A stretch of DNA of 64,000 bases from an uncultured Desulfobacter sp. GTDB taxonomy: Bacteria > Desulfobacterota > Desulfobacteria > Desulfobacterales > Desulfobacteraceae. A program made the position numbers and the translations under genes. The notes below the pieces were generated by a model. The model did not search any database and had not been told where the DNA came from. It worked only from the letters and a program-made list of their open reading frames with translations. Positions 8,823 through 55,699 of the stretch are shown here, piece by piece; within the stretch, counting starts at the first letter, position 1, and each line of letters begins with the position of its first letter. The DNA lies in NCBI GenBank assembly GCA_963665095.1, contig OY762069.1:5440001-5504000 (forward strand), given 5' to 3'.

Positions 8823-8839
8823 AACGACCTCCTTAGTTA

Positions 8840-8977
8840 ATGTTTAAACGCAAAATAGCCTGCCTGCGGCGCTGCTTCACAAAGCGGCCAAATCATAGTC
8901 GGCCTCACGTACTGAAGTACGCTTCTGGTTTCAGCTTTGCTTGCGCCTTAGATCTGGGCAACTTTGCTGCCAAACAT
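8840..8977. repeat. MITE-like palindromic intergenic element
   Basis: Imperfect terminal inverted repeats (ATGTTTAAACGCAAAATAGCC ... GGCAACTTTGCTGCCAAACAT) and a central palindrome CGTACTGAAGTACG. Confidence 0.4.
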
Positions 8978-9048
8978 GGGTTTGCGCAGCCTGTAGTGAT
9001 TTTCAATTAAATAAAAGAACAGTTTTTCCGGCAAAAAACTTAAAGGAT

Positions 9049-18743: not shown

Positions 18744-19262
18744 ATGGATAAGTTATTAAAAAATTACAGAGAGCTGATTTCCAGGATAGATCAGCACATT
18801 GAACAGCTTGCCCGTGTTCACGGGGATAATATTTTCTGTAAAAAGGGCTGTGACGACTGTTGCCGGCATTTAGCCCTGTTCCCTGTGGAAGCCTTTAACC
18901 TGGCCCGGGCGTTTGGCGCTCTTGATGACCTGTCCAGGGAAAAGATAGAGAAACAGGCCCGGGAAAACAGCGGGATTTGTCCTTTTCTGCAGGCTCATAT
19001 CTGTATGGTGTATTCTGACCGGCCTGTGATCTGCCGTACCCACGGCTATCCTTTGTACATGGAAAAAGATGGTGAAGGCATGGTGGATTTCTGTCCAAAA
19101 AATTTTAAAGGGGCAACTGAATTCAGCCGGTCGGACATGCTGGACCTGGACCGGTTGAATACCCTTCTCTTTGCTGTCAATAACCATTTTGTCGCCTGTT
19201 TTGAAGAAGATTTTCCAGATAGGATATGGATGAAGCAGGCCCTGACTTTGAGTTTAGCCTGA
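18744..19262 (+). CDS. YkgJ-family cysteine-cluster protein
   Basis: 'CKKGCDDCC', 'CPFL....C.VY..RP.ICR'. Confidence 0.85.
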   Translation: MDKLLKNYRELISRIDQHIEQLARVHGDNIFCKKGCDDCCRHLALFPVEAFNLARAFGALDDLSREKIEKQARENSGICPFLQAHICMVYSDRPVICRTHGYPLYMEKDGEGMVDFCPKNFKGATEFSRSDMLDLDRLNTLLFAVNNHFVACFEEDFPDRIWMKQALTLSLA

Positions 19263-21873: not shown

Positions 21874-21877
21874 GCAA

Positions 21878-23374
21878 TCATGCTCCTTTTTTCAGCCATT
21901 TGAGAGGATTGAGGGGTTTTCCGTGATGGCGGACCTCAAAATGAAGGCACGGCCCCTTGATGGAGCCGGTATCCCCTGCCGTGCCAATAACTTCTCCTGC
22001 CTCCACCAAATCGCCCTTTTTTTTGAAAAATTCTTCCACATGGGCATACACTGTATGGTAGCTGTCTCCATGGTCGATGATCAAAAGGTTTCCGTAACCC
22101 TTCAGCCATTGGGCAAACATGACCACGCCCTTGAAAACGCTTTTAACGGGCATGCCCCGTTCCGCCTTTATATCAATTCCGTTTTGAAAAGTGAAGGCGT
22201 TGTATTCCCCTTTGCGTGTAGTGCCGAAACGGGAGGTGATCTCCCCCTGAACAGGGACATCAAGTCGTCCTTTCTGTCTGATGAAGGAGGTGTCCGTCAA
22301 GGCCGGGGGCGCAATGGCGGCAATGGTCTGATCCAGTGCCCTGGCTGACGCCTCCAGGGAGTCCACGGCTGCCAGGGCCAGTTTTTTTCGGTGTCTGATG
22401 TCTTTCAGGATCTGTTCTTTTTTGGCTGCTTCCTTTTTCCGGATCAGGACCTGGGTTGCCATCTCTTCCTTAAGCTCGGTTTTAAGCTTGACCTGGCGGG
22501 TCAGTTCCTTTTCAAGGCGGGCCATCTCCGCCATGTTCCGGGCCTGTTCATCCAGCAGGGAATAATCTGATGCCACCACCTTTTTTAAAGCATTCTGGGT
22601 GACGACAAAATCAAATAGGGAAGAAGGCGGGGCGGCCATTTCAAGGCTGCCCATCCGGTGCATGCGGAAAAGTGCGTTTAACCGCTGTTCCGCATAGTTC
22701 CGGATCTCTTTCATGTTTGCTTTTAACTCGGCCATGGACGCCTGGGTCTGTTCAATTTCTGAGGCAATGGCCACAGTGTCCCGGCGCAGGGTCTGCACCG
22801 CCATCCGGGCCTGGTTCAGGGCCATATCGATTTCATTGAGCCCGTCCAGAACCTGCATCTCCTGCCGGGAAAACTGTTTGACCTTCTCGGTCTCCTGTTG
22901 AATTTGTTTTTCAAGGGCCTTTTGTCTGGCCGGATCGGCCTTGATGTGTTTTTCCTGTCTGGGACTCTTTTGTGTCTCCGGTCCGTTCGACACCTTTGTT
23001 TTCGGCGTATTCATTGTCGAACCGGCATCCTGCTTCCCGAAAGTGTCTGAAGAGACCGGCTTAAGCAGGATATATCTGGTGCGGTTTCTGATATACCCTT
23101 TCAGGCCCTGGTATTCCACTGTCAGCCAGCCGCCCTCTCCACCTTCCATTTCCAGTACATCAACACTCTCCCCTTTATTCAGAACCACAACCACATGGGC
23201 GGTCGTGTCCGGAGATGAACGGATATTGAGTTTAGCGGTGTTGATTTTCCCTTTGTAAATCACTCTGGCCACTGCATTATCCATCAGGGAAAAGAGGCAT
23301 GCGGCTGCCAGGCAGGTGATGAAAATCTGCCTTATTTTAATATTTGTTTCAGCGAGAGGAAACATCCGAACCAA
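21878..23374 (-). CDS. envC: EnvC-like murein hydrolase activator (SH3b + coiled coil + M23)
   Basis: N-terminal 'LNIRSSPDT...GWL.VEY.G.KGYI' (SH3b), long coiled coil, M23 'NGIDI...GYGNLLIIDHG...LHFEVR'; in operon with ftsEX. Confidence 0.8.
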   Translation of the reverse strand: MVRMFPLAETNIKIRQIFITCLAAACLFSLMDNAVARVIYKGKINTAKLNIRSSPDTTAHVVVVLNKGESVDVLEMEGGEGGWLTVEYQGLKGYIRNRTRYILLKPVSSDTFGKQDAGSTMNTPKTKVSNGPETQKSPRQEKHIKADPARQKALEKQIQQETEKVKQFSRQEMQVLDGLNEIDMALNQARMAVQTLRRDTVAIASEIEQTQASMAELKANMKEIRNYAEQRLNALFRMHRMGSLEMAAPPSSLFDFVVTQNALKKVVASDYSLLDEQARNMAEMARLEKELTRQVKLKTELKEEMATQVLIRKKEAAKKEQILKDIRHRKKLALAAVDSLEASARALDQTIAAIAPPALTDTSFIRQKGRLDVPVQGEITSRFGTTRKGEYNAFTFQNGIDIKAERGMPVKSVFKGVVMFAQWLKGYGNLLIIDHGDSYHTVYAHVEEFFKKKGDLVEAGEVIGTAGDTGSIKGPCLHFEVRHHGKPLNPLKWLKKGA

Positions 23375-24207
23375 CCTAAAAAGGTGCTGGAAAATAGAAT
23401 TAATGTCACGGCCTGCCAGGAGAGAAAGCGAATGTCAATATAGATATAGGAGCCCAGATTTTCTGCCATGCCCGAGGAGAGGGCCAGATATCCTGCCAGA
23501 AGAATTAAGATTCCCACAAGCCCGCCGAAAAAACCCTGCAGAATTCCTTCCATATAAAAGGGGGTTTTGATAAATCCATTGGTGGCACCCACCAGGCGCA
23601 TGATTTCCACCTCGGTCTGTCTGGCATAAAATGCCAGACGTACCGTATTGGCTGTGATAAACAGGGCGATCATCAAAAACAGGCTGCACATGGCATAGCC
23701 GGTCATTTTGAAAAGATTGAACAGTTTGAGAAATTTGCCCAGCCATCCCTGACCATACTCCACAGTATCTACCAGATCCAAAGCTTCGATCCGGGCGGCG
23801 GCTTTCTGAATTTCCTCAAAACTTGAATGGGCCACCATGATGATTTCCAGGGAATGGGGAAGGGGATTGGTCTGGAGGGTTGACAAAAATTGGGTTTTAG
23901 AGCCCATTTCCGTTTTCAGCCGCTCCAGGGCCTGCTCCTTTGACACAAAGGTTATTTTTTCAATCCCTCCCATGGCCACGAGCTGTTCCTTCAGATTCGG
24001 CAGCATGGGAGGGGTAAAGGAACTGTTTAAGTATACCATGGCCCGGCCCCCGTGATTCCAGGAGGCAAGAACCCGGCTGGTATTTTCAAAAAAAAGCAGG
24101 AATACAGACACCAGCAGAATGGACAGGGCTATGGTCATAATGGTGATCAGATTCAGAAACCGGTTAGACCGGATGTCTTTCAGGGCTTTTGTTATAAATC
24201 GCATCAT
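23332..24207 (-). CDS. ftsX: Cell division permease FtsX
   Basis: 'FVSKEQALE', 'NPLP', 'NTVRL..YAR..EVEIMRLVGAT..FIKTPF..EG'. Confidence 0.95.
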   Translation of the reverse strand: MMRFITKALKDIRSNRFLNLITIMTIALSILLVSVFLLFFENTSRVLASWNHGGRAMVYLNSSFTPPMLPNLKEQLVAMGGIEKITFVSKEQALERLKTEMGSKTQFLSTLQTNPLPHSLEIIMVAHSSFEEIQKAAARIEALDLVDTVEYGQGWLGKFLKLFNLFKMTGYAMCSLFLMIALFITANTVRLAFYARQTEVEIMRLVGATNGFIKTPFYMEGILQGFFGGLVGILILLAGYLALSSGMAENLGSYIYIDIRFLSWQAVTLILFSSTFLGWFGCFLSLKQILK

Positions 24208-24225
24208 ATCGTAACAAGTTCTTTC

Positions 24226-24924
24226 CTAATAGAGCATGGTGGAGATGCTTTTAAGTTTCCCGTCCTCCAGGGCAATATTCCGCCCATCCGCTATATTTTT
24301 CAGCAAACTGATGTTATGACTGGCAACCAGAATCGTGGCCCCGTTTTTATGGTACTGGAGAAGCAGATCCAGTACCTTCTGGGCTGATTCGCTGTCCAGG
24401 CTGCCGGTTGGTTCGTCGGCCAGGATAATAGCGGGTTCTCCCACCACGGCACGTGCCACAGCCACGCGCTGCTGTTCGCCCCCTGACAGTGTGGGGGGCA
24501 GGTGATGGGCTTTTTTTTCCATACCCGTCACCCGAAGTACGTGCATCACCTTTTTTTTAATATATGACGGTTTTTCTCCTGCCACCCGCAGTACCAATGC
24601 TACATTTTCAAACACAGTGCGATTGGGAATCAGTTTAAAATCCTGGAACACCATACCGAAACGGCGGCGAAAAAAGGGCAGTCTGGCTGATGAAATTCTA
24701 GCCAGGTTCATGCCGTTAATGAGGATCTGTCCTTCCGACACCCGTTCAGCTAAATAGAGAACTTTTAGCAGGGTCGATTTGCCCGCCCCGGAAGGGCCTG
24801 TCACAATGATGAACTCACCAGGTTCAATATCAAGGGTGATATCATTTAAGGCCAGCTTGCCGCCATAGCGCTTAGTTACATTAAACAACCTGATAATATT
24901 GGCTTTGCCGCCGTCCGCGTTCAT
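24226..24924 (-). CDS. ftsE: Cell division ATP-binding protein FtsE
   Basis: 'GPSGAGKST', 'GMVFQDFKL', '[14 protein letters not shown]', 'ADEPTG'; adjacent to ftsX. Confidence 0.95.
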
Positions 24925-35367: not shown

Positions 35368-38310
35368 TCAGGATTTTATTTCCAAACTCTCTGTTAATTC
35401 GGATGCAATACTGCTGCTTTCAAGGCGCATGATGCTTTCTTCTGAATAACCAAAACTCAAAAGATTGATGCTGCCATACCAGGTTATTTTGTCATCAACA
35501 ATTGCAAATTTCTGATGAATGTTCGATCTGAATATTAAATGGACTCCTATTTCTTCGGCTGATTTAAATATTTGCTCCAGTGATGATCTTCTGTCTTTTT
35601 TAAAATCGTGAGCAGGCCTCGTTATAATTGTAATTTCCACCTGACTTCTCAGAATTTCTTGAAAATACTCGGTCATTTGAAGCATTCTTTTTTTCGTAAC
35701 AAATGGACTGACAATCAATAACCGCTTTGATGCCATTGCGATATCTTGCAGATAAACGGGGTAAAAATTGTCTTTATTGAAAATGATATTGATTGGTGCT
35801 TCCGGCAATGATTCACCTTTTGTTTTATAGCCTATTGCAGCGTACCCTTTGAGTCTTTTCCCATACATTTTTTCAAGCATTCTTACATGAATATCAACGT
35901 AATCATATATCTGGACGTCCCTTTTATGCTCTGAGAAACGATGTAATCTCCCGGCATATTGCTGAAGTGTCCCCTTCCAGGCAATCGGCATTGCCAAAAA
36001 CAACGTATCAAGGCGGGCCTCGTCAAATCCCTCCCCAATATAGCTGCCTGTTGCGACAAGAACAAAAGATTCCGTATTCGGTATGGAATTAAGTTCGTCC
36101 ATTAAGTTGGCGGTCTTCTTTGCGCCCATTCCTCCTTTAAGGCATATTACATTCGTAATCCTTTTCTTGAGCGCCTCTCCCAAATCATCGACATGGGCGA
36201 CACGTCCTGTCAAAATCAATGAGTTTCTCCCCTTTTGATAGCATTCGACTACATCATCGACAATCAGCTGATTTCGTATTTCATCTGATATGAGATGGGA
36301 CTTAATCTCCTGAATAGTAGGTTCAGAATCATCTTTGTCCGACCCGATTCTAAAAGATGTAAATCTTGGGATCAAATAGTGTTCAAATGGTCTTTTTTCT
36401 GCCTGTTTTTTCGCATCAACAGAAAATCGGACAGGCCCGCAGTAAAAAAAGATAATCGGATGATGTCCATCCGGACGGGAGGGTGTTGCAGTCAGACCAT
36501 AAATATATTTAGCTGTCGCATGTTTGAGGATCTGTTCAAAAGTAACTGCCGGTACGTGGTGACACTCATCAACAATTATCATTCCGTAATTTTTTATTGC
36601 CTCTTTTACATTCCCCCTAATATTCATTGACTGCATAATCGCAATATCTATAATGGAACTTAGCCTGTCCTTACCGGCGCCCATATGCCCAATCAAACTT
36701 TGCTCTTTTTTTCGTCCCCTTTTCTTCGGCGGCTCCGGTAATGTTTCATTGATAGTCAGAAATTGATCTAAACGATCCCGCCACTGGGAGAGTAACTGTT
36801 GCCTGTGGACTAATACAAGAGTGTTTACCTTTCTTGTACTGATCAATTTTGCCCCAATAACAGTTTTCCCAAATGCAGTGGCAGCGGACAGCACCCCATT
36901 GTCATGGGCTAATATGAAATCTACTGCTTCCTGCTGTTCTTCTCTTAGTACTCCATTAAACTCAACATTGACCATTTTTCCTGAAGTTGTCTCATCTTCA
37001 ATTTCTGGAATTACTTTCAATTCATCAAGGGTTTGTATGACCTCATCTTCGCATCCCCTCGGCAGTGCCAGATAATCCTCAAAATCATCAGCACAGGATA
37101 TTATTCTCGGCTTGCCATATGTTGATATCCTCATGGCCTGAGCTTTGTAGAATGCTGGATTTTTAAATGCCGCATATCGCTTCAGCGTATTCAAAGCCCT
37201 CTGGCTCAATCCGTTTTTTTCAATATAGAGCATACCGGATCTAACAATCTTGACTGTTCCTGAAAAATCACCTTTTTTCAGCTCGGTTGTTTGTTTCACC
37301 CATGGTTTTAATTTTGAATCACCATCTTTAAGCAACCCCAGTTCATTACCCTTACTCAACTTTTTAATGAGTGTAGTTAAAAGCTTCTCATTCAGTTTTT
37401 TAATATTTGAAAGAAAACTCCATTGATCCGTGTAAGGTACCAAATTTTCGTCAATGAACACTGAATTTCCATTATCTCTGGCTTTTTTCTGGAGCGGCAA
37501 TGCTATCAGATTACCAAATCCTCCCTTTGGCATTGTATCCTGATTGGGAAACAACCTGTCATAAGAGGCAAATGAAATTTTGTGCCGTTTATTCATAGAG
37601 TAGGTCAGGAGTGATGACCCTAATTTTCGGGCAAGTGCAGCCGGTACGTTATCCTCAAAAAAGAACCACGCATGGCAACCGTTACCGGATTGGGACCGCT
37701 CTGTAGCTATTGGAATATCAAACTGTGAGCATGTCTCTCGCAATACCGAAATATCTTTCTGCCAGCCTTCCTTATCAAAATCAATGGCTAAAAAATGGCA
37801 TGTCTCATCAAGCTCCATTGGATATATTCCAATAATCATTTCGCCTCTGAGATGTTTTTCAACGGCAGTTTCATCTAAAAGAGAATACCTTTGTTGATTA
37901 CAACTGGAGCACTTTATTCGGGGTTTGTTACAAAGACCCGGTGTCCATTCGTTAAAGCAATCGGGGCTATATCCAGAAAAACCCTTTTTATTCTGCCATT
38001 TTTTTGCGTATACATCATCTCGTCCTCTGAACAATGACATGAACAGGGAAATTTTTTCATTGATGGGAGAAAATTGATTAACGGTGCTTTCAGCACAGTT
38101 TTCAATATGTTCGAAACTGTCAACAGACTTCTGCTCAAAATGAAAGCCATTTTGCTGTTTTGATTGTGTGCTTTGAACAGGGCCTGTTTTAATGCTGCTG
38201 GTGGGATTTAGGTGAGATTCTAATTTCCGAATTTTTTCTCTGAGGTACTCATTTTCCTTAAGAAGTTCATCGTATTTGTTTTTCAGGCTATTGTATCTAT
38301 CATCAGTCAT
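35368..38310 (-). CDS. TOTE-type archaeo-eukaryotic primase domain + SF2 (DEAD/DEAH) helicase + PLD-like nuclease fusion
   Basis: AEP region 'LFRGRDDVYA', 'FLAIDFD', 'ERSQSGNGCHAW', 'YDRLFPNQD..PKGGFGNLIALPLQ'; helicase 'AATAFGKT', 'IIVDECHH', 'GLTATP', 'GEGFD', 'QYAGRLHR'; C-terminal 'HQKFAIVD....WYGSIN'. Confidence 0.85.
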   Translation of the reverse strand: MTDDRYNSLKNKYDELLKENEYLREKIRKLESHLNPTSSIKTGPVQSTQSKQQNGFHFEQKSVDSFEHIENCAESTVNQFSPINEKISLFMSLFRGRDDVYAKKWQNKKGFSGYSPDCFNEWTPGLCNKPRIKCSSCNQQRYSLLDETAVEKHLRGEMIIGIYPMELDETCHFLAIDFDKEGWQKDISVLRETCSQFDIPIATERSQSGNGCHAWFFFEDNVPAALARKLGSSLLTYSMNKRHKISFASYDRLFPNQDTMPKGGFGNLIALPLQKKARDNGNSVFIDENLVPYTDQWSFLSNIKKLNEKLLTTLIKKLSKGNELGLLKDGDSKLKPWVKQTTELKKGDFSGTVKIVRSGMLYIEKNGLSQRALNTLKRYAAFKNPAFYKAQAMRISTYGKPRIISCADDFEDYLALPRGCEDEVIQTLDELKVIPEIEDETTSGKMVNVEFNGVLREEQQEAVDFILAHDNGVLSAATAFGKTVIGAKLISTRKVNTLVLVHRQQLLSQWRDRLDQFLTINETLPEPPKKRGRKKEQSLIGHMGAGKDRLSSIIDIAIMQSMNIRGNVKEAIKNYGMIIVDECHHVPAVTFEQILKHATAKYIYGLTATPSRPDGHHPIIFFYCGPVRFSVDAKKQAEKRPFEHYLIPRFTSFRIGSDKDDSEPTIQEIKSHLISDEIRNQLIVDDVVECYQKGRNSLILTGRVAHVDDLGEALKKRITNVICLKGGMGAKKTANLMDELNSIPNTESFVLVATGSYIGEGFDEARLDTLFLAMPIAWKGTLQQYAGRLHRFSEHKRDVQIYDYVDIHVRMLEKMYGKRLKGYAAIGYKTKGESLPEAPINIIFNKDNFYPVYLQDIAMASKRLLIVSPFVTKKRMLQMTEYFQEILRSQVEITIITRPAHDFKKDRRSSLEQIFKSAEEIGVHLIFRSNIHQKFAIVDDKITWYGSINLLSFGYSEESIMRLESSSIASELTESLEIKS

Positions 38311-41427: not shown

Positions 41428-41702
41428 TTAAGGCCCCGGCGAACTCTTTGTTATATTTGAGATTTTTTTTCGTATATTGTTTTGATATAATAGAAATTCG
41501 TTACACCTGTTTGCCTTAAATGAAATTCCGGTCCGAATCGTTCTCACGCTCTTTTTCTCCATCTGATTTCCATGCTGTTTCTCTACTTCGGGCATGAACT
41601 GAATACGAAAAATAAACGAAATAAAAACAGATATCTTTATTCAACGGCATTGCAAGTTTAAAGAAAACGAAACAGCCATTTTCGTATTAATGAGAAAGGG
41701 TT

Positions 41703-42761
41703 ATGTCTCATATTGACTGCAAACTCGATTCTGATTCCAGGGCCGCCATACTTAAAAGCGTCTATCTGGAAAATCAGCGAATGATTACTAGAACTGCGGT
41801 CAATGGCCAAAGGGAAGGTCACCCCTTTGATTTCAGTTTTTTAAAAATTGGCAAAGTGGTCTCTGTCCTGGTTTTTTTAAGTGTCCTTTCAATAGAGCTG
41901 TTCAGCAAAAACCTCTCCCCTGAAAATTATGAGGCGCCAGTGATATATGAGATAAAACAAGCACCGATTCATTCGATGGTTGCTCCTGAATCATCCAACA
42001 ATTTTGACCTCTTGCTTGTTGGTGATAAAAATATTGAGCTGTCATCACTGTTCGGGCTCGGCGTTAAAACCGTTGTCATTGATCCCGGCCATGGCGGCCG
42101 GGATCCCGGAGCCGTTGGGGCTGAAGGGACGCTTGAAAAAGATATTACCCTGGATGTTTCCATCAAGCTTAAGGCGCGTTTGGACGAATTCGCTCAATTT
42201 AAGGTGTTGCTGACCCGGAATAAAGATATCACAGTAACATTGGCGGACCGCGTTGCCTTTGCCAAAAAGAATAACGCGAATCTGTTTGTCTCCATACATG
42301 TGAATGCACTGCCCAATAAATCCCTGAATGCCATTGAAACCTATTATTTCGGTGCGCCGAGAAGTCCTGAAACCCTGCGCCTGGCCCAGGTGGAAAACTC
42401 CGGATCTGATTTCAGTATGGCAGAGCTCGATTTGATTCTTGCCGATTTTGAAAACACCCTGAAACGTCAGGAGTCAGCTAAACTTGCCAAGTTAATTCAG
42501 GAAAGCCTGTTTAAAAATATAAAACGCCGGGATGCCAAGGCCCTTAATTTCGGTATCAGAATGGCGCCTTTTGTAGTTATTTCCCAGACCGGGGTCCCCA
42601 GCGTGCTGGTTGAAATTTCATGCATATCCAAATTAGAGCAGGAAGCCAAGCTGGCCACGGCAGATTATCGCTCGGATGTCGCAGGTTACATTACAGATGG
42701 GATCACTGCCTACCTTAAGATGCAAAATACCATAATATCAGACAGGAGGATTGAGCAATGA
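41703..42761 (+). CDS. Membrane-anchored N-acetylmuramoyl-L-alanine amidase (Amidase_3)
   Basis: Zn/catalytic motifs 'IDPGHGGRDPGA', 'EKD', 'SIHVNA', 'PSVLVEI'; TM segment near the N-terminus. Confidence 0.92.
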   Translation: MSHIDCKLDSDSRAAILKSVYLENQRMITRTAVNGQREGHPFDFSFLKIGKVVSVLVFLSVLSIELFSKNLSPENYEAPVIYEIKQAPIHSMVAPESSNNFDLLLVGDKNIELSSLFGLGVKTVVIDPGHGGRDPGAVGAEGTLEKDITLDVSIKLKARLDEFAQFKVLLTRNKDITVTLADRVAFAKKNNANLFVSIHVNALPNKSLNAIETYYFGAPRSPETLRLAQVENSGSDFSMAELDLILADFENTLKRQESAKLAKLIQESLFKNIKRRDAKALNFGIRMAPFVVISQTGVPSVLVEISCISKLEQEAKLATADYRSDVAGYITDGITAYLKMQNTIISDRRIEQ

Positions 42762-43828
42762 GCAGCAACGCGAGTGACGGAAACGATGGTACTTCCAAAA
42801 ACGAGAGAGTGGATCAAATGAAAATTTTGAATATCGGCATTGATCTTGGCACCTCAAGAAGTGCTATGTCGGCCAGCAACAGAAAAAGAGACTGGGTGGA
42901 AAGCTATGTGGGATGGCCCAAGGATTTTGTCGCCCAGAAGATGCTGGGCAAACGTGTCCTGTTAGGTGGGGATGCCCTGAAGAACCGCTTGTCACTGAAC
43001 CTTTACCGGCCGCTGGAGCATGGCGTGATCAAGGACGGGTCGGAATTCAATGAAGCGGCCGTCAAAGAGATCGTTGGCTGTTTAATTGACGTGGCCCTGG
43101 CAAAAAACGGGGATGAAGAGATGGACCTGCGCATTATTGTGGGCGTGCCGTCGGATTCGTTCAAGGAGAATAAAATGGCCATCAAGCGGCTGCTGTCAGG
43201 GTTTTCCGAATCGATCATGGTCGTGTCCGAGCCCTTTTCCGTGGCCTATGGGATGAACGAGCTGAACAACTCCATGGTCATTGATATCGGCGCCGGCACC
43301 ATGGATTTCTGTATCATGCACGGCACCATGCCCTCTGAAGATGACCAGAAAACCGTTCTCATCGCAGGAGATCACATTGACCGGCAGCTTGAAACCTATC
43401 TGAGGGAACGCTATCCCGAGGCCAATTTTACCTTGAATATGGTTCGCCGATTCAAGGAGCAGTACAGCTTTGTGGGGGATGCCCCAAACACCGTGAGCGT
43501 GGATATTCCGGTGAACGGCAAACCCACCCCCCACAACATCACAGCCGAAATGAAGCGCGCCTGTGAAAGCATTCTGCCGGGGCTGACAGAAACCATGCTG
43601 GAGTTAATTTCCGATTTTGATCCCGAGTTCCAGGAAATTGTACGGCAGAATATTATTCTTGCCGGCGGCGGCAGTCAGATCCGCGGCCTTAAGGAGTACA
43701 TTGAAAAGGTGCTCAAAGAGTACGGCCCATGCCAGGTGCATAGAATCAATGATCCGCTTTATGCCGGTGCGGACGGTGCCCTGGCCCTGGCCGAAGACAT
43801 GCCGGAAGAGTACTGGCAGAACAGCTGA
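42758..43828 (+). CDS. MamK-like bacterial actin
   Basis: 'GIDLGTS', 'S.VGWPKD', 'RPLEHGV', 'VVSEPF.VAYG', 'DIGAGT.D', 'KEQYSFVG', 'F.PEFQ..V.QNIILAGGGSQIRGL', C-terminal 'GALALAEDMPEEYW'. These match remembered MamK motifs better than MreB; no search was run. Confidence 0.8.
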   Translation: MSSNASDGNDGTSKNERVDQMKILNIGIDLGTSRSAMSASNRKRDWVESYVGWPKDFVAQKMLGKRVLLGGDALKNRLSLNLYRPLEHGVIKDGSEFNEAAVKEIVGCLIDVALAKNGDEEMDLRIIVGVPSDSFKENKMAIKRLLSGFSESIMVVSEPFSVAYGMNELNNSMVIDIGAGTMDFCIMHGTMPSEDDQKTVLIAGDHIDRQLETYLRERYPEANFTLNMVRRFKEQYSFVGDAPNTVSVDIPVNGKPTPHNITAEMKRACESILPGLTETMLELISDFDPEFQEIVRQNIILAGGGSQIRGLKEYIEKVLKEYGPCQVHRINDPLYAGADGALALAEDMPEEYWQNS

Positions 43829-43850
43829 GTTTTATCGGTCAGGCCCGGAA

Positions 43851-44252
43851 TCAGGCAAGGTCTGTATCCTGTAATTCTATCACAAAATAATACTCCCCGG
43901 GCCGGGTACCCCATTCCGGGTTACCCAGGTCCACGGAAATGGATTTAACGGCCCGGGTAACCCTTTGAATCGACTGGTCGTGCCTGACGCATCCGTTTTT
44001 AAAAACTGCCGTGTCGATTTTTCGAAATCGTGCGTCAAAGCAATCCATGCAGTCCCGGGGACCCCTATGACGGTCAAAAGGGTGTTTCAGGGCGTTTAAA
44101 AAGTCATTAAACACCCGGGCGTCAATATCCCGCTCAAATTTGATTAATCGTTTAGCCCAGTATTTTTTAATTTCTTTGTATTCTTTGGCTTCCCGGCCGG
44201 ATTTGATCCGGTCAAACCCTTTTTCTGTCAAGGTTACATGCAGGCTCCTCAT
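43851..44252 (-). CDS. ASCH/PUA-like domain protein
   Basis: 'LHVTLTEKGFDRIKSG...EY.EIKKYW.KRL' and C-terminal 'G.PEWG..PG.YYFVIEL'. Confidence 0.6.
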   Translation of the reverse strand: MRSLHVTLTEKGFDRIKSGREAKEYKEIKKYWAKRLIKFERDIDARVFNDFLNALKHPFDRHRGPRDCMDCFDARFRKIDTAVFKNGCVRHDQSIQRVTRAVKSISVDLGNPEWGTRPGEYYFVIELQDTDLA

Positions 44253-44390
44253 TGTTTTTCCTCAAATAGAATGCGCATTTGTTTCATCTGATATGGCTGT
44301 AGAAGTCCCCCATTTTCATTTAATTTGTATCCTGTCCGGGCTGGTGGTAAATTATGAAAAGATCATAACAGAAAAACAGCCAAAGGAGAA

Positions 44391-46749: not shown

Positions 46750-47655
46750 GCTCAAGGGCGGTGCTGCAACACCACCCTTGAACCACATGTTCCAGAGAAC
46801 AATAACGCCGTGCAAGCAATTATGTGGCTCGGAACACTTCTTATATATAGCTTTTCGTAAGTAGTGTCAAATTTCAAGACCTCTTTGGGATATTTGAAAA
46901 CATTAATATTTTTTCAAATTCCAAGGGGGCTTTTTGTTTTGGAAACTCCAAAAATTGGAAAATGCCTGCATCCAGTCGGGGCTTTTTCAGGTATCACTCT
47001 TGACGGTAAAAAAATAGTCGCTGGGACGCTTCGCTGTAACTCTTGGACCTGCCCAGTTTGTCAACCGATTCTTATCAAAAAACTTTATAAAAGAATTCTT
47101 CAAGGGGCTATCGGTAAGGATGGAACTTCTCGTTATGGGTTGAAATTTTTAACTTTGACCTTTGCCGGAGCTGACGAAAGGCATCGAATAAAGGAAATGA
47201 TCGAAAAGCATAATAACGAACTATTTAAAAAGCCTGATAAAAACAGACCTTATGATCATGAACGCAAAGTCGAGAAAAAATTAGTTTACCCAGAGGTTGT
47301 CTATGACATCATGACCAAAAATTTTCATAAACTGATCCGGGCATTAAAAAAGCAATATGGGGATTTTTATTATTTCAGGGTAAATGAATTACAAAAGGAT
47401 GAAACACCACATTTCCATGTCTTGTTGGCAGGGAACGCTGTTATTCCCAAAGGTATTTTAGAGGCTGTCAGGGCCGTCTTGAAAATGCAGCCAAATCCCC
47501 GGTTTGAAAATGTATGTTCTTAGCTGGTTTTTCTTCTCTTAAAAATCAAATTTAAAAATTTCGTCTTCTTCATTTTTTTCCTTTCTTTGCCCTATGCTTT
47601 TTTCCGTACATACTGATCTTATTCATGTCTGATTTGAATCGGAGGCAATATGTAG

Positions 47656-48222
47656 ATGGGACTACTCAAGAAAAGAAGGTGCCGAAATTGTAGAAGATTA
47701 TTCGCTCCTAATCCAAGAAATATAGACTCTCAAAAATACTGTTCCAGATCTGAGTGCAGAAAAGCCAGCAAAAGGTGCAGCCAGAAAAAATGGCTGAACA
47801 AGCCTGAAAATCGAAACTACTTTTGTGGGCCTGCCCATGTTGAACGTGTTCAGGAATGGAGAAAGAAGAATCCCGGATATTGGAAGAAGACCAAAAGCCC
47901 AGATACGTTACAAGACTCGATATTGCCCCAACAGGCTGAAAATAAACAGGATTCAACGCAATTCATGGACAATGCGTTACAAGATTTCTTACGGGCGCAA
48001 CCTCCTGTCATTATAGGGTTAATCGCCAACTTTACAGGCAGTGCGTTACAAGATGACATCGCTTCCACGCTCCTTCGTATGAAAAAATACGGGCAAGACA
48101 TTTTATGTTCACAACCCCAAAAAGAAGGAGAGCAAAATGATTGCAAAGGCCCCCATTTTACCATCCAGGGTTCGAAAAACACCCCAAAGCTTCAGTTGGA
48201 TCGATCATCGCCTGGTGCGTGA
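47656..48222 (+). CDS. IS21-borne Cys-rich hypothetical protein
   Basis: 'CRNCRRLF.PNPRN...QKYC...EC.KASK', 'RVQEWRKKNPGYW'; GGAGG RBS. Confidence 0.65.
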   Translation: MGLLKKRRCRNCRRLFAPNPRNIDSQKYCSRSECRKASKRCSQKKWLNKPENRNYFCGPAHVERVQEWRKKNPGYWKKTKSPDTLQDSILPQQAENKQDSTQFMDNALQDFLRAQPPVIIGLIANFTGSALQDDIASTLLRMKKYGQDILCSQPQKEGEQNDCKGPHFTIQGSKNTPKLQLDRSSPGA

Positions 48223-48523
48223 ACGGCACATTGACAGGTGTACACACTCCCAGTCCGCCCTATATCTGTTTCTGGTGTGTGTGGCCGACAGTCAAGGCAT
48301 CAGCTACTATGGAGATAAGGCGATCATGGATCGGCTGTGCATGGATTCTGATGGCCTGAAGACAGCACGTTCCGGGTTAATACAGAATGGGCTGATTGCC
48401 TGGCAGAGACCTATTTACCAGGTGCTTGCCCTTGACCCTGCTCCTGGTAAATCAAAACGGCACGGCTCCATGCTGCGTCTTTCAGATATTCTAAAAGCAG
48501 CAGCGGAGGGCAACCATGATTGA
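48137..48523 (+). CDS. IS21-borne hypothetical protein (possible winged HTH)
   Basis: 'FSWIDHRLVR...LYLFLVCVAD..G.SYY', 'YQVLAL'; overlaps the istA start. Confidence 0.65.
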   Translation: MIAKAPILPSRVRKTPQSFSWIDHRLVRERHIDRCTHSQSALYLFLVCVADSQGISYYGDKAIMDRLCMDSDGLKTARSGLIQNGLIAWQRPIYQVLALDPAPGKSKRHGSMLRLSDILKAAAEGNHD

Positions 48524-50215
48524 TTACGAAACCTATGTTCAAATCAGAAATTACTTTACCCGAGACGGCCTGACATACAGCCAGATTGCCAATGCCCTTG
48601 ATCTGGACCCCAGGACAGTTGCCAGGTGGGCCAACCTGAAAAGGTACCAGCCCAGACAGTCAGCCCCCAGAGAAAGCAAGCTTGATCCGTATAAGAACGC
48701 CATCCTGCATATGCTTGAAAAACATCCCTACAGTTCCCGCCAGATATTTCAACGAATCACCCAGGATGGTTTTGCCGGGGGCATCACCATTGTTGAGGAT
48801 TATGTCAGGAAGGTGCGGCCGCCCAAAACAAAGGCGTATTTGAAACTGAGTTTTGCTCCGGGTGAAGCTGCCCAGGTGGACTGGGGTTCTTATAGTACAG
48901 TAAGGGTGGGCAACACGACCCGGCGGTTGAGCTTTTTTGTGATGGTGATGTGCCACAGCCGCATGATGTACGTTGAGTTCACGGTCTCCCAGACCATGGA
49001 GCATTTTTTAGGCTGCCACCAGAATGCATTTGAGTTTTTTGGAAAGGTGCCGGAAAAGGTCATGGTGGACAATCTCAAATCCGCTGTTCTAAAAAGACTG
49101 CTGGGGAAAGCCCCGGTCTTCAACCCCAGATACCTTGATTTTGCAGATTATTACGGATTTACAATTGTTCCCTGTAATGTGCGCAAGGGTAATGAAAAAG
49201 GCCGGGTTGAAAATGCTGTGGGCTATGTCAAAAAGAATCTGCTCAACGGTCTTGAAATCCCTGATTTTAAGATCATGGAGCCCACCTGCAAACACTGGCT
49301 TGATACTGTCGCCAATGTCAGAACCCACGGAGAGACCGGTCAAAAGCCCGCAGAGATGTATGCCCTGGAATTGCCCCACCTATACCCTCTGCCGTCAGAA
49401 CCCTATGATATCGGTGTGGTAAAGCAGGTACGGGCTTCAAGACAGTACAGGGTAGTCATCGATACAAATGCTTACACAGTACCCGCCCAGCTGGCAGGGG
49501 TGGCTTTGACTGCCAAGCTTTACCCTGATCGGATCTGCTTTTACCATGAAGACAAGTTGGTTGCCCGCCATGTCAGATCCTATGGCCGCAAAAACGACCT
49601 TGAAGATCCTGATCACTCTAAAATCCTTTTGAGCCAGCGCAAAAAGGCCAGAGACCAGGCAATTTATATGCGTTTTTTAAGCCTCTCTGACAAGGCCCGG
49701 GAGTATTACAGGCAATTGCAGAACAGGCGGCTTAACGCCTCCCATCATGTACGGCAAATCGTGGCCTTGAGTGAAATCTACTCCCGGGAACAAGTTGCCA
49801 TGGCCATTGAAGATGCCTTTAAGTTCTCTGCATTCTCATGTGAATACATCGCCAACCTCCTTGAGCAGCGGGTTCGGTCTCCTGAAGTGGACCCCATGTC
49901 AAGACCGATTTTAACGTTTTTTAAGCTACATTTTCTCTGTTTCTAATTTCGAATCAGCCTGTTAAAGACCCTCTTTTCCGGCATATTTTTCTTGATATTT
50001 AATACCGCTATGTTATCCTCCCGCCGCCAACCCGGAGGATAGGGCAATGCTGGGAAGCAACCTGAGCGCCGTGGCTGGCGACGAAGACATGGGGGCAGTA
50101 TACGTTTAATGTATGCTGTCCTTCCCCCATGTTTTTGTCCTTAATGCGTTAAATCCTCGCGCCTTAGCGCGAAATCAATACCCCGTAGGGCCGCCGGAGG
50201 CATCAGGCCTTTCCT

Positions 50216-51022
50216 TTAAGCCGCTCGATAGACCGAAAACGGCACCTTATACCCCAGGGCTGAATGAAGTCTCTCCCGATTATAAAACCCGATAAACGCT
50301 TTTAACGATTGCTGAGCCTCTCTTACCGTTCTGTAGTCCTTCAAATAGACTTCTTCGTATTTAATCGTTCTCCACAGCCGTTCCACAAAAACGTTGTCCA
50401 AGGCTCTGCCCTTTGAATCCATGCTGATTTTGATGTTTTTAGCCTGGAGTATCTTCAAAAATTTTAATGAAGTGAACTGACTACCCTGGTCAGTGTTGAA
50501 AATCTCAGGTGTCGATACAATCAATGCCTCCTCAAGGGCCTCAATACAAAATGTATTCTCAAGGGTGTTACTGAGGCGCCATGAAAGGACATATCTGCTA
50601 AACCAATCCATAACCGCCAATAAGTACATAAATCCGTTTCCAATTCTAATGTATGTGATATCTGTACTCCATACCTGATCTGGCCTGTCAATTACGGCAT
50701 TTTTCAGCAAATAGGGGTAAACTTTATGGCTTTCATCCCTCCTTGTTGTTTTAGGTCCTGGGTAAATCGCTTCTATTCTCATCAGCTTCATCAGGCGCTG
50801 TACTCGTTTCCTGCTTACCGGATACCCCATATTGTTCAGCCAGGCTGTAAGCCTACGGCTTCCATAAAAGGGGGTTTTGGTATGCTGCTCATCAAGCAGA
50901 TCCATAAGGGTTAATGTATACGGGCTTATGGCTACCGGCCTGTAATACAACGCCCCTTTTGAAACCTGAAGCAGTTCACACTGCCGGTTAATGCTGATGG
51001 AAGGATGTTGTTTATCTATCAA
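50216..51022 (-). CDS. IS3 transposase OrfB (rve DDE domain)
   Basis: 'FYGSRR', 'WSTDITY', 'FNTDQGSQFTS', 'DNVFVERLWRTIKYE'. Confidence 0.92.
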   Translation of the reverse strand: MIDKQHPSISINRQCELLQVSKGALYYRPVAISPYTLTLMDLLDEQHTKTPFYGSRRLTAWLNNMGYPVSRKRVQRLMKLMRIEAIYPGPKTTRRDESHKVYPYLLKNAVIDRPDQVWSTDITYIRIGNGFMYLLAVMDWFSRYVLSWRLSNTLENTFCIEALEEALIVSTPEIFNTDQGSQFTSLKFLKILQAKNIKISMDSKGRALDNVFVERLWRTIKYEEVYLKDYRTVREAQQSLKAFIGFYNRERLHSALGYKVPFSVYRAA

Positions 51023-51032
51023 CCCCCTTCTG

Positions 51033-51317
51033 TCAGAGATTGATTGTATTAACCTTTTTTTTTAACCAGTCATTCTCAACTTCGAGCTGACCGATTTTCT
51101 TATATAATTCGTCTATTAGATTCTGAGTATCATTTGGGCTTTTCTTTTTCGCTGATGAAAACAACGTCGGAAGACCCTCTATCGCTTCTTTCTTCCATCT
51201 GTTTAACATAGTTCGATGAACCTGGTATTTGGATGACAACTCCGCAAGAGTTTCATTTTCTCGAATCACATCAACTACAACTTTAGCTTTGAACTTTCCG
51301 GTATAATTTTTTCTCAT
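51033..51317 (-). CDS. IS3 transposase OrfA (HTH)
   Basis: 'RKNYTGKFKAKV...TLAELSSKYQVH....RWKK', 'LYKKIGQL.VE.DWLKKK'. Confidence 0.9.
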   Translation of the reverse strand: MRKNYTGKFKAKVVVDVIRENETLAELSSKYQVHRTMLNRWKKEAIEGLPTLFSSAKKKSPNDTQNLIDELYKKIGQLEVENDWLKKKVNTINL

Positions 51318-51510
51318 GGACCTCCTTTTTCGGTACAAATTTGAACCGGGTTTTTATCACCTCATATGTACCTTAGCAACTGGTTCAAATTTCGGGGTCC
51401 ATTATATCCCCAGGAGCCCGGAGCCCTGCATGTTACACATAAAGCAGATTTACTGAACCTGACAATCCAGGAGCCTGATCTTAATATTTATACCGCCATA
51501 GGAGATAAAA

Positions 51511-52245
51511 ATGCCTGATCTTGAGAAATGCCTGTCCCACTTAAAACTACCTTATATCAGGGAAAACTATGAGTCAGTGGCTACCCTGGCTGCCCAGAAG
51601 CAATGGAGCCACGTTCAATATCTATCAGAGCTTGCCAGGCATGAATCACTACTGCGCCATGATAAAACCATCCAGCGCCGTATCCGTATGGCCAAGTTCC
51701 CGGTAATCAAAACCCTGGACCAGTTCAACTGGTCATGGCCCAGAAAAATCAATCAGGCTCAGATCCAGAATCTGTTCAGACTCAAGTTCATTGAAGAAAA
51801 GGGTAACATTATCGTGATCGGCCCGGTCGGTGTTGGGAAAACACATATTGCGACTGCTTTAGGTTACCAGGCCTGCCTGAAAAACCATACGGTTCTGTTC
51901 TCTTCTGCCATTGATATCGTCAACAATCTGGTGGCAGCCCAGAAGGCGGGTCAGTTAAAGCAGGAACTGAGAAAATACCTCAAGCCAACTTTGTTGATCA
52001 TGGATGAACTGGGCTACCTGCCCATTGACAAGATTGGGGCAGACCTGTTGTTCCAAATTATCAGTCAGCGCTATGAGCAAGGAGCCATCATAATAACCAC
52101 AAACCGGGTGTTCAAAGATTGGCCGGAGATCTTCAACAATGACATGACATTAACATCAGCTTTGCTGGACAGGCTTCTTCACCACACCGAGCCTGTGGTC
52201 ATTGAGGGTAAGAGTTTTAGAATGAAAGATGTGACGGAAGAATAA
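51511..52245 (+). CDS. istB: IS21 helper ATPase IstB
   Basis: 'GPVGVGKTH', 'LLIMDELGYLP', 'TTN', 'ALLDRLLHH', 'GKSFR'. Confidence 0.95.
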   Translation: MPDLEKCLSHLKLPYIRENYESVATLAAQKQWSHVQYLSELARHESLLRHDKTIQRRIRMAKFPVIKTLDQFNWSWPRKINQAQIQNLFRLKFIEEKGNIIVIGPVGVGKTHIATALGYQACLKNHTVLFSSAIDIVNNLVAAQKAGQLKQELRKYLKPTLLIMDELGYLPIDKIGADLLFQIISQRYEQGAIIITTNRVFKDWPEIFNNDMTLTSALLDRLLHHTEPVVIEGKSFRMKDVTEE

Positions 52246-52809
52246 CAAAGCCGAGGCCGGTCTACATGCATCTGGAGGCCGGCCCTTTAATCGCCTACAT
52301 TTTTAAACCGGGAGATTTATGACATGTTCACGCCCCGCCTGACAGAGGCCATAGAAAACAAATGGCGTGATTTATATGGAATGGGCTATGTGAGAATTAA
52401 TTGTATAAAATTCAAAGACCGAAAACACGCGATTCGGTATATGCTTAAATACATAACCAAGGATATTAAAAAACCTGGAAAAAGAAAAAGGATATTCACT
52501 GCCTCAAGACACGCCTTACTTAAAATTGTTAAACCACGGTGGATGGCATTACAAGTTTATATTGGAAGAGTTACAGATAAAGGGGTTTCCGAAGAAAAGG
52601 TGTCTTACAATATGGATGTTGGGCATGGCTATTGCGGGGTTACAAGTTCGGATCGTATCGCGATAGTACCAAAAACACATATTCTTAAAACTATAATGGA
52701 AAGACGGCTACAGCAACTTCTCGTAACAGAGATTTAAGGTTTTGCATTGACTTCCATGCCCCTAAAATATAACACTCGATTGAATTCACATTCAATTATG
52801 GGGGTGTGT

Positions 52810-53940
52810 ATGTCTGGTACAATTGGCCGATATAAAAAATCCTGGTACGTTCGCTGGTGGGACAAAAAAGCTCAGACGGATATTAAAATATACCGATATA
52901 AAGGATTCAAGCTTGAAACCAGGGCTTTTGCCGAAAAGCTTCTTCGAGCAATGCAAGAAGATGTTGAGAAAGGGACTTTTTACATTGAAAAGTATACTCA
53001 AAGCGGCTTTTCTGGCGTTGTCCCCTTTATTGACCAGTGGTTAGAAAACGCCGAAGATTTGTCTCCAGCGACATATAAAGGATACCGGTCGTATGTTGAA
53101 AATCATTTAAGACCATTCTTCCAGAAGCATAGTCAACTTGATCTCCCTGATATCCAATTAGATGTACTCGAAAAGCTAAGAAAAAGCCTGAAAGAAAAGG
53201 GCCTATCTCCTAAAACGCAAATCAACATAATGTATGCTATGCATTTGATTTTGGATGAAGCCAAAAGAAGCCATCGAATTACCCACATGCCCTCTTTCCC
53301 CAAAAAAAGACAATACCAATATTCAAAAAAGCCTATTCAATGGTTGCCGGAAGATAGGCAGTTGGCGATTATTGAAAGTATACCAGAAGAACACAGACCC
53401 ATATTTTATTTTTTAAAATACCACTTACGACGCCCCGCTGAAGCCTGTGCCCTTCATAAAGAAGATTATTATGATGGCGTTTTCACCATTCACCGTTCAG
53501 TTTCTGCCCGGGAGCTCACTCAAAAGACTAAAACAGGTGAAATTCATACCATTCCTTGTCATCCTGATTTTGAAAAATATATCGCAATCGAAGCAGAGAA
53601 ACAGAAACTGTATGGAATCTTTTCGCCTTTTTTTTTCATAAACCCCCAAGCACGGTAACCTGGAAAGCGATATATGGGAGAAGCATTAAATAGACTTTGG
53701 AATAAAGCATGTATACTGGTAGGGGAGGATATTCCTCTTTATGCAGGGACAAAGCACAGCTCCTGTTCTCAATATATTAACGAACGGGGCTTATCTGAAT
53801 CTGAATTACAAATCATTACTGACCACGCCAGAATCGAATCCGTAAGGGCATACACGAAAACAGAAGTCAAAAGAAAACGAGAATTGATGATTAAAAATAT
53901 TTTCAAGATTAATGGTAAAAGAAAACAAACTAAAAAGTAG
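52810..53940 (+). pseudogene. Tyrosine recombinase/integrase with an in-frame nonsense codon
   Basis: 'RRPAEAC', 'KTKTG', 'LYAGTKHS', 'TDHA', 'RAY'. The two ORFs share a frame and are separated by TAA at 53656-53658. Confidence 0.85.
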
Positions 53941-54052
53941 GTATCTAATCTGCCATCGACATGGCCAGGTCAAATGATTTTTTCTTGCCTTTAAGCTTTA
54001 TTTTTGAGACTCTTTTTATAAAATTCATTTTAAATTGGGAGTTATTAATATA

Positions 54053-55699
54053 ATGCCGAATCTCTCTGTAGTTCCGAATAATTCTGAAGTTGATCGTAAA
54101 TCGGATAATAGCTCATTAATAAAAGAAATTGAGTCAAGATCAACGAAGGAGATAATAATAGGCTTTTCTGGAATGATGGGCAGTGGGATCTCTGGAATGG
54201 TTGAAACGTTTCAAAAAAAATTTGAGAAAAAGGGCTACGAAGCAAAGCACCTCAAGCTTAGTGATTTCATAAAAGAACGATACAACACCGTAAGGTTCCA
54301 GTTAGAGGATGATTATATAGATTATAAAACGTTAGATGAAGATCCTCAAAGATTAGAATTTTTCAAAAAGATAATAACACTGCAATCAATTGGAAACCAT
54401 TTACGAGAACAATATAGCACAAGTATTCTCTCGCAGTATGCACTTTCTAAAATTTTTAATGATCGGATTAGAAGGGATGTTAATGGAAAGGAGATAGAGG
54501 ACAACCTCGATAAAATTATAGAAGATACGAAAGAAGCTAATATCAAAAAAGTTACATTCATAGACAGTTTAAAACATATAGATGAATATAATCTCTTTAG
54601 GACTATTTATGGGAATATGTTCTATATGATCGGTGTATTGTGCCCTGAAAAAATTCGTATGGAACGTATTTTAAAGGACTACGACATTGAAGAACAGCAG
54701 CTTCAAATTTTGATTGACCGGGATAAAAAAGAAGATATAGAGAACGGTCAACAGACATTGAAGGTTTTGCAAGAAGCAGATATTTTTTTGAGAAATATTT
54801 CCTTGGATGAATCAAATGATAGCATCGAAAGATATGTGGATTTAATATTGGGAGAACCTTTTATTCGTCCAACGATTGATGAGTTTGGGATGTTTACGGC
54901 CCAAGCTGCAGCACGGCAGTCAGGATGCATTTCAAGACAAGTTGGAGCATCCATTTTCAGTAAGGATAACGACATTATTTCTACGGGTTGTAACGATGCC
55001 CCCATATTTGGTGGAGGGCATTATGCCAATGACGGTACTGTTCCTGATGGAGAACGAAAAGACAACAGATGTTGTTCATTAAGAGCTGAAAATAAATGTA
55101 AAAATACGGAGCAGTTGGATAAGATTCTTGAAGACATAAAAACTATTGTTAAAGAAAACGTAGGTGGAATAAATAATGAGGACACAGAATCTCTAAGCAG
55201 AAAAATTTTTAAAAACACACGATTAAAAAGTATAATAGAATTTTCCAAAGCAGTTCATGCTGAAATGGATGCGATCACTACGGCGGCACGTAATGGTGTT
55301 AATGCACTCAAAGGGGCAACTTTATATTGCACAACTTTTCCTTGCCATTTGTGTGCAACTAATATAATAGCAGCAGGAATAGAGAAGGTTTGTTATATAG
55401 AACCATACTTGAAAAGTTTAGCTGTTGATTTGCATGAAGATCAGGTAAATTTTGACCCCAAAACTATTGACCCAAATCATGAGGACAATAGAAACAAAGT
55501 CCTTTTTTTACCTTTTGAGGGTGTTGCGCCAAAGCAATATTTAAATATTTTTAGATCTTGTGAACGCAAAGAAAAAGATGGCACCAAAATCGAGTATGAT
55601 ATAAAAGAAGCGATCCCAGCATTAAAACAGATGATGGACTCCTACACAGATTATGAAAAAGCAATATCTAAGTCTTTTAATGATTTAATAGGGGAATAA
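54053..55699 (+). CDS. Anti-phage dCTP deaminase (AvcD-like; P-loop kinase-like + dCMP deaminase domains)
   Basis: 'EIIIGFSGMMGSG', 'IDSLKH..E', 'SGCISRQVGA', 'GCNDAP', 'VHAEMDAI', 'YCTTFPCHLCA', 'YIEPY.KS', 'PFEGVAP'. Confidence 0.9.
   Translation: MPNLSVVPNNSEVDRKSDNSSLIKEIESRSTKEIIIGFSGMMGSGISGMVETFQKKFEKKGYEAKHLKLSDFIKERYNTVRFQLEDDYIDYKTLDEDPQRLEFFKKIITLQSIGNHLREQYSTSILSQYALSKIFNDRIRRDVNGKEIEDNLDKIIEDTKEANIKKVTFIDSLKHIDEYNLFRTIYGNMFYMIGVLCPEKIRMERILKDYDIEEQQLQILIDRDKKEDIENGQQTLKVLQEADIFLRNISLDESNDSIERYVDLILGEPFIRPTIDEFGMFTAQAAARQSGCISRQVGASIFSKDNDIISTGCNDAPIFGGGHYANDGTVPDGERKDNRCCSLRAENKCKNTEQLDKILEDIKTIVKENVGGINNEDTESLSRKIFKNTRLKSIIEFSKAVHAEMDAITTAARNGVNALKGATLYCTTFPCHLCATNIIAAGIEKVCYIEPYLKSLAVDLHEDQVNFDPKTIDPNHEDNRNKVLFLPFEGVAPKQYLNIFRSCERKEKDGTKIEYDIKEAIPALKQMMDSYTDYEKAISKSFNDLIGE

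Follow-up and report, generated by a model that had tools for sequence, protein, structure and literature searches.

Bacterial actins steer wall synthesis (MreB, FtsA), DNA (ParM) and organelles (MamK). A stretch of 64,000 nucleotides from an uncultured Desulfobacter sp. (the window) raises the question of what a MamK-type actin does when its gene adjoins one for a peptidoglycan amidase outside any magnetosome cluster. The upstream gene (41703..42761, forward strand) encodes a predicted bitopic N-acetylmuramoyl-L-alanine amidase of 352 aa without an AMIN domain, its only domain being Amidase_3. The downstream gene (42758..43828, forward strand) encodes a 356-aa MamK-family actin of what we term the amidase-linked clade. 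The two are joined by a ribosome-binding site and a stop/start overlap (42744..42761, forward strand), just as a preliminary description of the locus had read them: the actin ATG (42758–42760) overlaps the amidase TGA (42759–42761) as ATGA, and AGGAGG at 42744–42749 lies 8 nt 5′ of the ATG. Junctions in relatives overlap, abut or leave a gap within about 30 nt. Upstream of the pair, a non-coding stretch that may hold a promoter or operator (41455..41640, forward strand) is conserved with G021 and G024, two congeners holding both genes, and contains a long-range inverted repeat. The repeat shows one compensatory pair in three sequences, too few for an RNA claim; Rfam returned no match to the stretch, an alignment of eight upstream sequences yielded no motif beyond the genus, and a promoter and terminator scan found sites in numbers not above chance. 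On the other side, a 133-aa reverse-strand ORF (43851–44252), which by eye we take to be ASCH-like, has no Pfam or NCBIfam match.

We assigned the actin by profile score, fold and key residues. It scored 408.3 bits on the NCBIfam MamK model (NF040964; cut-off 400), and some actins of its clade fall slightly under that cut-off (381 in L029). Its top solved sequence match is MamK 5ljw (E 1e-75), and the modelled protein (pLDDT 84) is closest in fold to MamK 5ljv (TM 0.86, rmsd 2.1). It is 46–47% identical to actins encoded in two Desulfobacterota mam clusters; an 83% identical protein is labelled uncultured Desulfobacter sp. Residues D29, E158 and D176 are invariant and the ATPase positions are kept, E158 and D176 aligning with MamK E143 and D161, which have a role in hydrolysis. 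The position of the non-polymerising MamK change A278D corresponds to E293 here, and is D in a Desulfobacterota mam-cluster actin, so it is not diagnostic. Fifteen positions are specific to the amidase-linked clade. Judged by sequence, the actin belongs to the MamK family without being a magnetosome MamK. Two other identities were tried and rejected: MreB (62 bits on TIGR00904, cut-off 366), a true mreB lying elsewhere in the genome at C1:502962, and BeeR (207 bits, cut-off 530), which forms a separate branch.

Phylogeny placed the amidase-linked actins in a clade of their own (SH-aLRT 99–100), apart from magnetosome MamK, BeeR and MreB; score and tree thus agree with the earlier view of a MamK-type protein rather than MreB. 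All trees were quick IQ-TREE runs with SH-aLRT and without bootstrap, on selected subsets that included no labelled Mad28. In an 83-row tree, a single branch (SH-aLRT 99, stem 0.61) set the 37 amidase-linked actins apart from all other rows, and when named deep-branching MamK were added, the amidase-linked actins, deep MamK and alphaproteobacterial MamK were each separate (99–100). Rooting with BeeR put the clade within the MamK-like radiation, with weak support (84) for a position close to deep MamK. A first AU test against a single magnetosome-MamK clade (p 1e-4) was discarded, because its constraint pushed out unrelated rows as well. A narrower test, which used BeeR as outgroup and put both magnetosome-MamK groups in one clade excluding the amidase-linked actins, did not reject that arrangement (p-AU 0.42), and we therefore make no claim of nesting, or of the ancestral function that the preliminary description had suggested, for the amidase-linked clade.

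The same surveys brought up further MamK-like proteins. Two unlabelled actins of the mam-cluster genome G375 branch away from the amidase-linked clade. In P0291, a 768-aa protein, FtsZ (tubulin and FtsZ_C domains) is fused to an actin of MamK type whose place in the tree is with alphaproteobacterial MamK; the fusion could be real or an assembly artefact. One MamK-like clade (P0246, P0250, P0251, P0254, P0255 and others) carries N-terminal extensions of 350–900 residues without a Pfam match. Another non-magnetosome clade (L077, L078, L080, L083 and L084 of family f50, together with L081) occurs in seven of eight sampled genomes of the one family, preceded by 117-aa and 663-aa proteins without a Pfam match. 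MamK-like genes outside visible mam clusters also appear as tandem pairs in G277, G335 and G386 and singly in G049 and G546 (loci L071, L074, L075, L047 and L204).

The partner enzyme appears equipped to cut peptidoglycan. Its Pfam Amidase_3 domain spans residues 124–335 (42072..42707, forward strand; E 5e-47), and all 23 aligned orthologues keep H130, E145, H199 and E304; the catalytic residues are intact, as had been remarked. H130, E145 and H199 are zinc ligands by alignment to AmiA, with the AmiA ligands as given in the accessible part of PMC10268282. Sequence alignment to amidases of solved structure indicates a regulatory insert at about residues 222–260 (42366..42482, forward strand) with equivalents of the blocking and interaction helices; it aligns through in the AmiA/B/C-type structures 4bin, 3ne8 and 8c2o and is absent from 1jwq and 5emi (CwlV and the Nostoc AmiC2 domain). 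E231, invariant in aligned orthologues, aligns with AmiA E167, which the same part of PMC10268282 describes as the latch of the blocking helix; model confidence is low at residues 219–242. The protein falls far below the AmiA/B/C equivalog cut-offs and is unlike the genome's housekeeping paralogue (L002), which consists of AMIN plus Amidase_3.

The N-terminal tail of the amidase is where a contact with the actin may lie. A conserved helix motif (residues 13–27; 41739..41783, forward strand), predicted to be cytoplasmic and by alignment and model a candidate actin-binding site, precedes a single predicted transmembrane helix (residues 49–67; 41847..41903, forward strand) that is hydrophobic and helical in the model. 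A basic stretch comes before this helix, basic residues lying mostly on its N-terminal side, and we infer that the N-terminus faces the cytoplasm and the catalytic domain the periplasm. L17 and N24 are invariant in 23 of 23 orthologues and, with V/I/L at 20 and Y/F at 21, form one face of the predicted helix, which extends over residues 10–33 in the model. Mean column conservation is 0.59 in the motif, 0.27–0.32 in its flanks and 0.63 in the catalytic domain. The motif is found in 32 of 33 amidase rows, 20–35 residues before the hydrophobic segment in relatives; in the 33rd row (L021) an upstream fragment carries it. Run against the 6289 ORFs of the genome, its profile matched only the two amidase copies (30.8 bits; next 8.5). 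A WH2-like reading, prompted by the resemblance of the pattern R-x-x-hydrophobic-L-x-x-hydrophobic, is tentative at most: a search with ten tails returned no Pfam family at E 10, and an Atlas search no usable match. A Tat-signal reading was rejected on the spacing of the motif from the hydrophobic segment and on a twin arginine at the Tat position in only 4 of 32 tails. Beyond the membrane helix, a linker of about 45 to more than 100 residues shows little conservation and is modelled without structure. Comparison with G021 points to purifying selection on both genes (dN/dS 0.09 and 0.15), which is strong in the amidase catalytic domain (0.06); pairwise values for the tail (0.53 over 15 codons) are no lower than for the linker (0.43).

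Adjacency of amidase and actin is far beyond chance. Outside this genome, the amidase lies directly upstream of the actin at 43 of 44 amidase-linked clade loci, spread over several phyla, which upholds the proposal of a two-gene module. The 43 are made up of 28 loci from a genome-collection search, those in G021, G024, G086, G351 and G637, and those of five Bacteroidota-group and five gammaproteobacterial genomes. In the collection, searched with the actin, the next upstream gene was the amidase at 28 of 28 loci, a count that overstates independence since 21 are from related Rhodothermales/Bacteroidota, and that includes two places on one contig (L022 and L023); at L021 two ORFs hold the pieces of a broken amidase, next to an actin that is intact. 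Within the same phylum, 17 of 401 genomes match the MamK model, with the amidase only in this genome and in G086 and G351 (61–64% identical). Matches in a Rhodospirillales-type sample (33 of 251) were mostly in mam clusters and had the amidase only in G462 and G637, the G640 locus being too short to judge. All seven matches among 301 Bacteroidota-group genomes were paired. Among 400 gammaproteobacterial genomes, 14 matched and the amidase stood beside six of seven clade-assigned actins, where assignment was by profile score rather than tree and, for G1118, from a partial gene. The exception, G1302, is a clade member by score with a GGDEF/EAL-type gene upstream of the actin; in this draft genome we found no tail-bearing amidase, only a generic amidase elsewhere.

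The association held from both directions. No amidase lay upstream of the 46 non-clade tree rows (one of which had no upstream room) or of nine lower-scoring gammaproteobacterial actin loci. Of the 566 amidase loci listed in a metagenome scan, the 80 best entered the reverse test: ten bore the tail motif, eight of them with at least 300 bp downstream, and the actin followed in all eight and in none of 62 other evaluable loci. The tail pattern was loosened for this test after viewing the sequences, and the 62 include L102, which matches the loose pattern only and has no actin. Flanking genes vary by lineage, the Rhodothermales pair standing alone between thyA and folA, and we found no third gene beside the pair that lineages share. 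Amidase and actin distances correlate (r 0.95), as is equally expected from shared ancestry. Searches for mobile-element carriage gave no plasmid match at 1e-20 and five weak, unrelated viral matches. From these sequence comparisons, the pair is a conserved and portable two-gene module with apparent horizontal moves.

Within the genus, the actin and the amidase occur in the same 3 of 25 genomes and the housekeeping amidase in all 25. The module is accessory and its role dispensable, 22 of 25 congeners being without it. In G021 and G024 the pair sits among different neighbours; in the present genome, a single 6.9-Mb contig that is 97% complete, it is set among island-type genes. A rolling-circle Rep gene (REP_ORF2-G2P) at 46864–53658 is apparently split by an IS21 element, itself interrupted by an IS3-type element and followed by an integrase; more than a dozen near-identical copies of this IS21 are scattered over the genome. 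The island is flanked at 54035–55699 by a low-GC gene for a 554-aa dCMP-deaminase-domain protein, which we presume to resemble anti-phage deaminases, and at 35368–38310 by one for an AEP-TOTE/helicase/PLD protein. Elsewhere in the window, a repeat of about 140 bp (8831–8986) has dozens of 75–86% identical copies genome-wide. About 17 kb upstream of the pair, a reverse-strand operon at 19254–24924, probably core chromosome, reads by eye as ftsE, ftsX, an envC-like (M23) gene, a carboxy-terminal protease and a deacetylase-like gene, and is a possible source of an amidase activator.

A second copy of the module, which the preliminary description does not mention, lies at C1:4106008–4107650, with the amidase intact and the actin cut by a 479-bp deletion so that it stops at residue 168. 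The duplication took in flanking DNA (to C1:4.105–4.109 Mb, 98.8% identity): the duplicate stretch (C1:4105206–4108794; L001:9200–12800) runs DraG fragment, amidase, actin and YqeY-like gene, and a hicB-like gene replaces window positions 43825–44381. Purifying selection acted on both copies as they diverged (dN/dS 0.11), before the second actin lost its 479 bp. Because the deletion joint appears in contigs of two independent studies and not in a third run, we regard the duplicate as real and the deletion as strain-specific-looking.

How might the two proteins work together? We lean towards a model in which MamK-type filaments bind the amidase tail and so place an autoinhibited enzyme where the wall is to be cut. 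The non-magnetosome actin would polymerise ATP-dependently under the inner membrane, and its filament would bind the conserved cytoplasmic helix of the membrane-anchored amidase. Lined up in this way, the enzyme would cut peptidoglycan locally, with E231 imposing autoinhibition and a LytM-type factor or clustering by the filament relieving it. The wall would probably be thinned locally, so that cells change shape or separate, in an accessory role beside MreB and the AMIN-containing housekeeping amidase. Direct binding is the simplest account because a conserved cytoplasmic peptide on a periplasmic hydrolase always travels with one actin. Of the two roles offered in the preliminary description, localising wall hydrolysis or positioning a non-magnetosome structure, the conserved tail favours the former and leaves the latter less favoured. 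Counting against the model are the failure to find a tail-bearing amidase in the G1302 draft, the broken amidase at L021, the truncation of the second-copy actin (though the first copy is intact), a tail dN/dS no lower than that of the linker, the relatedness of many of the counted loci and the absence of the module from most congeners. More ambitiously, and in our estimation rather doubtfully, a separate, horizontally spread MamK-type cytoskeleton may drive peptidoglycan cleavage instead of synthesis, its filaments gripping a dedicated helical peptide of the autoinhibited amidase so as both to place the enzyme and to switch it on, and be the living sister or source of deep-branching magnetosome MamK.

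Binding could also have a different consequence. The actin might act as a nucleotide-driven switch, tail binding either clustering the amidase or lifting the blocking helix through a transmembrane signal, a logic we liken to FtsEX-EnvC control of AmiA/B. The invariance of E231 implies a need for activation, yet the module holds no activator gene, and translational coupling would suit a fixed stoichiometry. We nevertheless judge such a switch unlikely: the long, variable and unstructured linker would make a poor allosteric conduit, and the genome's six M23/LytM domains, among them that of the window's ftsEX-envC-type operon, could activate in trans. Nor do we think it likely that the relationship runs the other way, with the amidase serving as the membrane and wall anchor for a filament that positions other cargo such as a granule, a vesicle or the nucleoid. 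In its favour, MamK is the nearest relative of characterised function and places organelles by way of membrane adaptors; in the trees the clade is close to deep-branching magnetosome MamK; and the pair has no further conserved adaptor gene next to it. A mere anchor, however, would need neither invariant catalytic residues nor a catalytic domain under such strong constraint, and no cargo genes recur beside the pair; a genome search for the gas-vesicle gene gvpA gave no matches, with its positive control silent as well.

Returning to direct binding as the preferred reading, linkage alone is no proof of contact, and the genes might simply be co-expressed for one process while the tail binds another protein or the membrane. 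The exceptions G1302 and L021 would fit such an arrangement. We consider it improbable, given near-perfect two-way linkage maintained through apparent horizontal moves with no third gene, an invariant Asn and an aromatic residue that suggest a specific site, and a modest hydrophobic moment of the tail (0.10–0.56 across relatives, 0.10 here).

We also asked whether the actin owes its presence to magnetosome genes. As first described, ORF lists of the window (size floors of 90–200 aa), inspected by eye, contain no mam or mreCD gene. Protein queries from three mam-cluster loci (L072, L073 and L082), run by tblastn over the whole genome, returned generic homologues only and no mam orthologue set. 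A MamB model search was not discriminating, and the magnetochrome domain was used instead: it exceeds its cut-off in 0 of 28 carrier genomes and 6 of 6 magnetosome controls, with one sub-threshold match in G467. Many carrier genomes are drafts, which weakens single absences and leaves the overall pattern intact. MreB is present in 27 of the 28. A lone CDF transporter (C1:2235128–2235943) reaches 234.8 bits on the MamB model, a score close to those of genuine mam-cluster CDFs. We regard as highly implausible a displaced mamK, the relic of a lost magnetosome island, with the amidase as its chance neighbour: the actin's score over the MamK cut-off, magnetotactic members of the same order and the CDF score speak for it, but the separate clade on a long stem, the absence of mam neighbours beside the CDF, the magnetochrome contrast and pairing across phyla speak against. 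The actin, then, lies outside any magnetosome cluster; it does not group with MreB, its adjacency to the amidase is not unique to this genome and it was not displaced from a magnetosome island, these being the three outcomes that the preliminary description had set against its own reading.

The actin shares with MamK (5ljv, 5ljw, 5jyg; NF040964) its best sequence and fold match and the phosphate-loop and catalytic positions. It differs in forming its own clade, in carriers without magnetosome genes, in having a wall amidase as fixed partner and in its 15 clade-specific positions. MamK residues 80–85 form a loop that makes a cross-strand contact, according to the accessible part of bioRxiv 10.1101/2023.11.07.565980; this loop aligns with the actin without gaps and differs in sequence. 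BeeR (8r2n) is likewise, in the portion of its description available, a MamK-related actin of non-magnetotactic bacteria with an unassigned function and a disordered N-terminus, but it is much more distant, on a separate branch, and that portion of text contains no link to an amidase. The module bears on the origin of magnetosome MamK and offers a two-protein, peptide-sized system for the function of a MamK relative without magnetosomes; in practice, finding a protein annotated as 'MamK family' in a metagenome bin is no evidence of magnetotaxis.

The amidase resembles AmiA, AmiB and AmiC (8c2o, 3ne8, 8c0j, 4bin) in catalytic fold, zinc ligands, regulatory insert and blocking glutamate, as judged by sequence and the accessible part of PMC10268282. 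Unlike them, it has no AMIN domain, carries a long conserved N-terminal tail and a predicted uncleaved anchor, and is encoded beside an actin.

We found no published description of an actin-amidase module in the mostly open-access main texts searched, and the word 'amidase' is absent from the main text, as available, of PMC10653835 and PMC12713370. The module is real, widespread and apparently undescribed, and belongs to an already known kind, the cytoskeleton-guided wall hydrolase. That kind is represented by BacA-LmdC of Hyphomonas neptunium and Rhodospirillum rubrum, for which the consulted part of PMC10945521 reports overlapping genes, a bitopic M23 endopeptidase with a cytoplasmic tail, occurrence in many phyla and binding of the LmdC N-terminal tail to BacA (KD about 15 uM). 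Measured against that part of the account, both systems overlap a cytoskeletal gene with a bitopic-hydrolase gene, have a conserved N-terminal cytoplasmic tail (predicted here) and span many phyla. The parts are not homologous: an actin replaces the bactofilin, Amidase_3 replaces M23, and the tail is a predicted helix rather than a beta-hairpin. Binding is demonstrated for BacA-LmdC and proposed for the actin and amidase, and a nucleotide-dependent polymer would be expected here. We suggest that bactofilin-LmdC is the best model for how the module may work; if so, a MamK-type actin tied to a wall hydrolase would be a new job for an actin, mirroring bactofilin-LmdC with unrelated parts.
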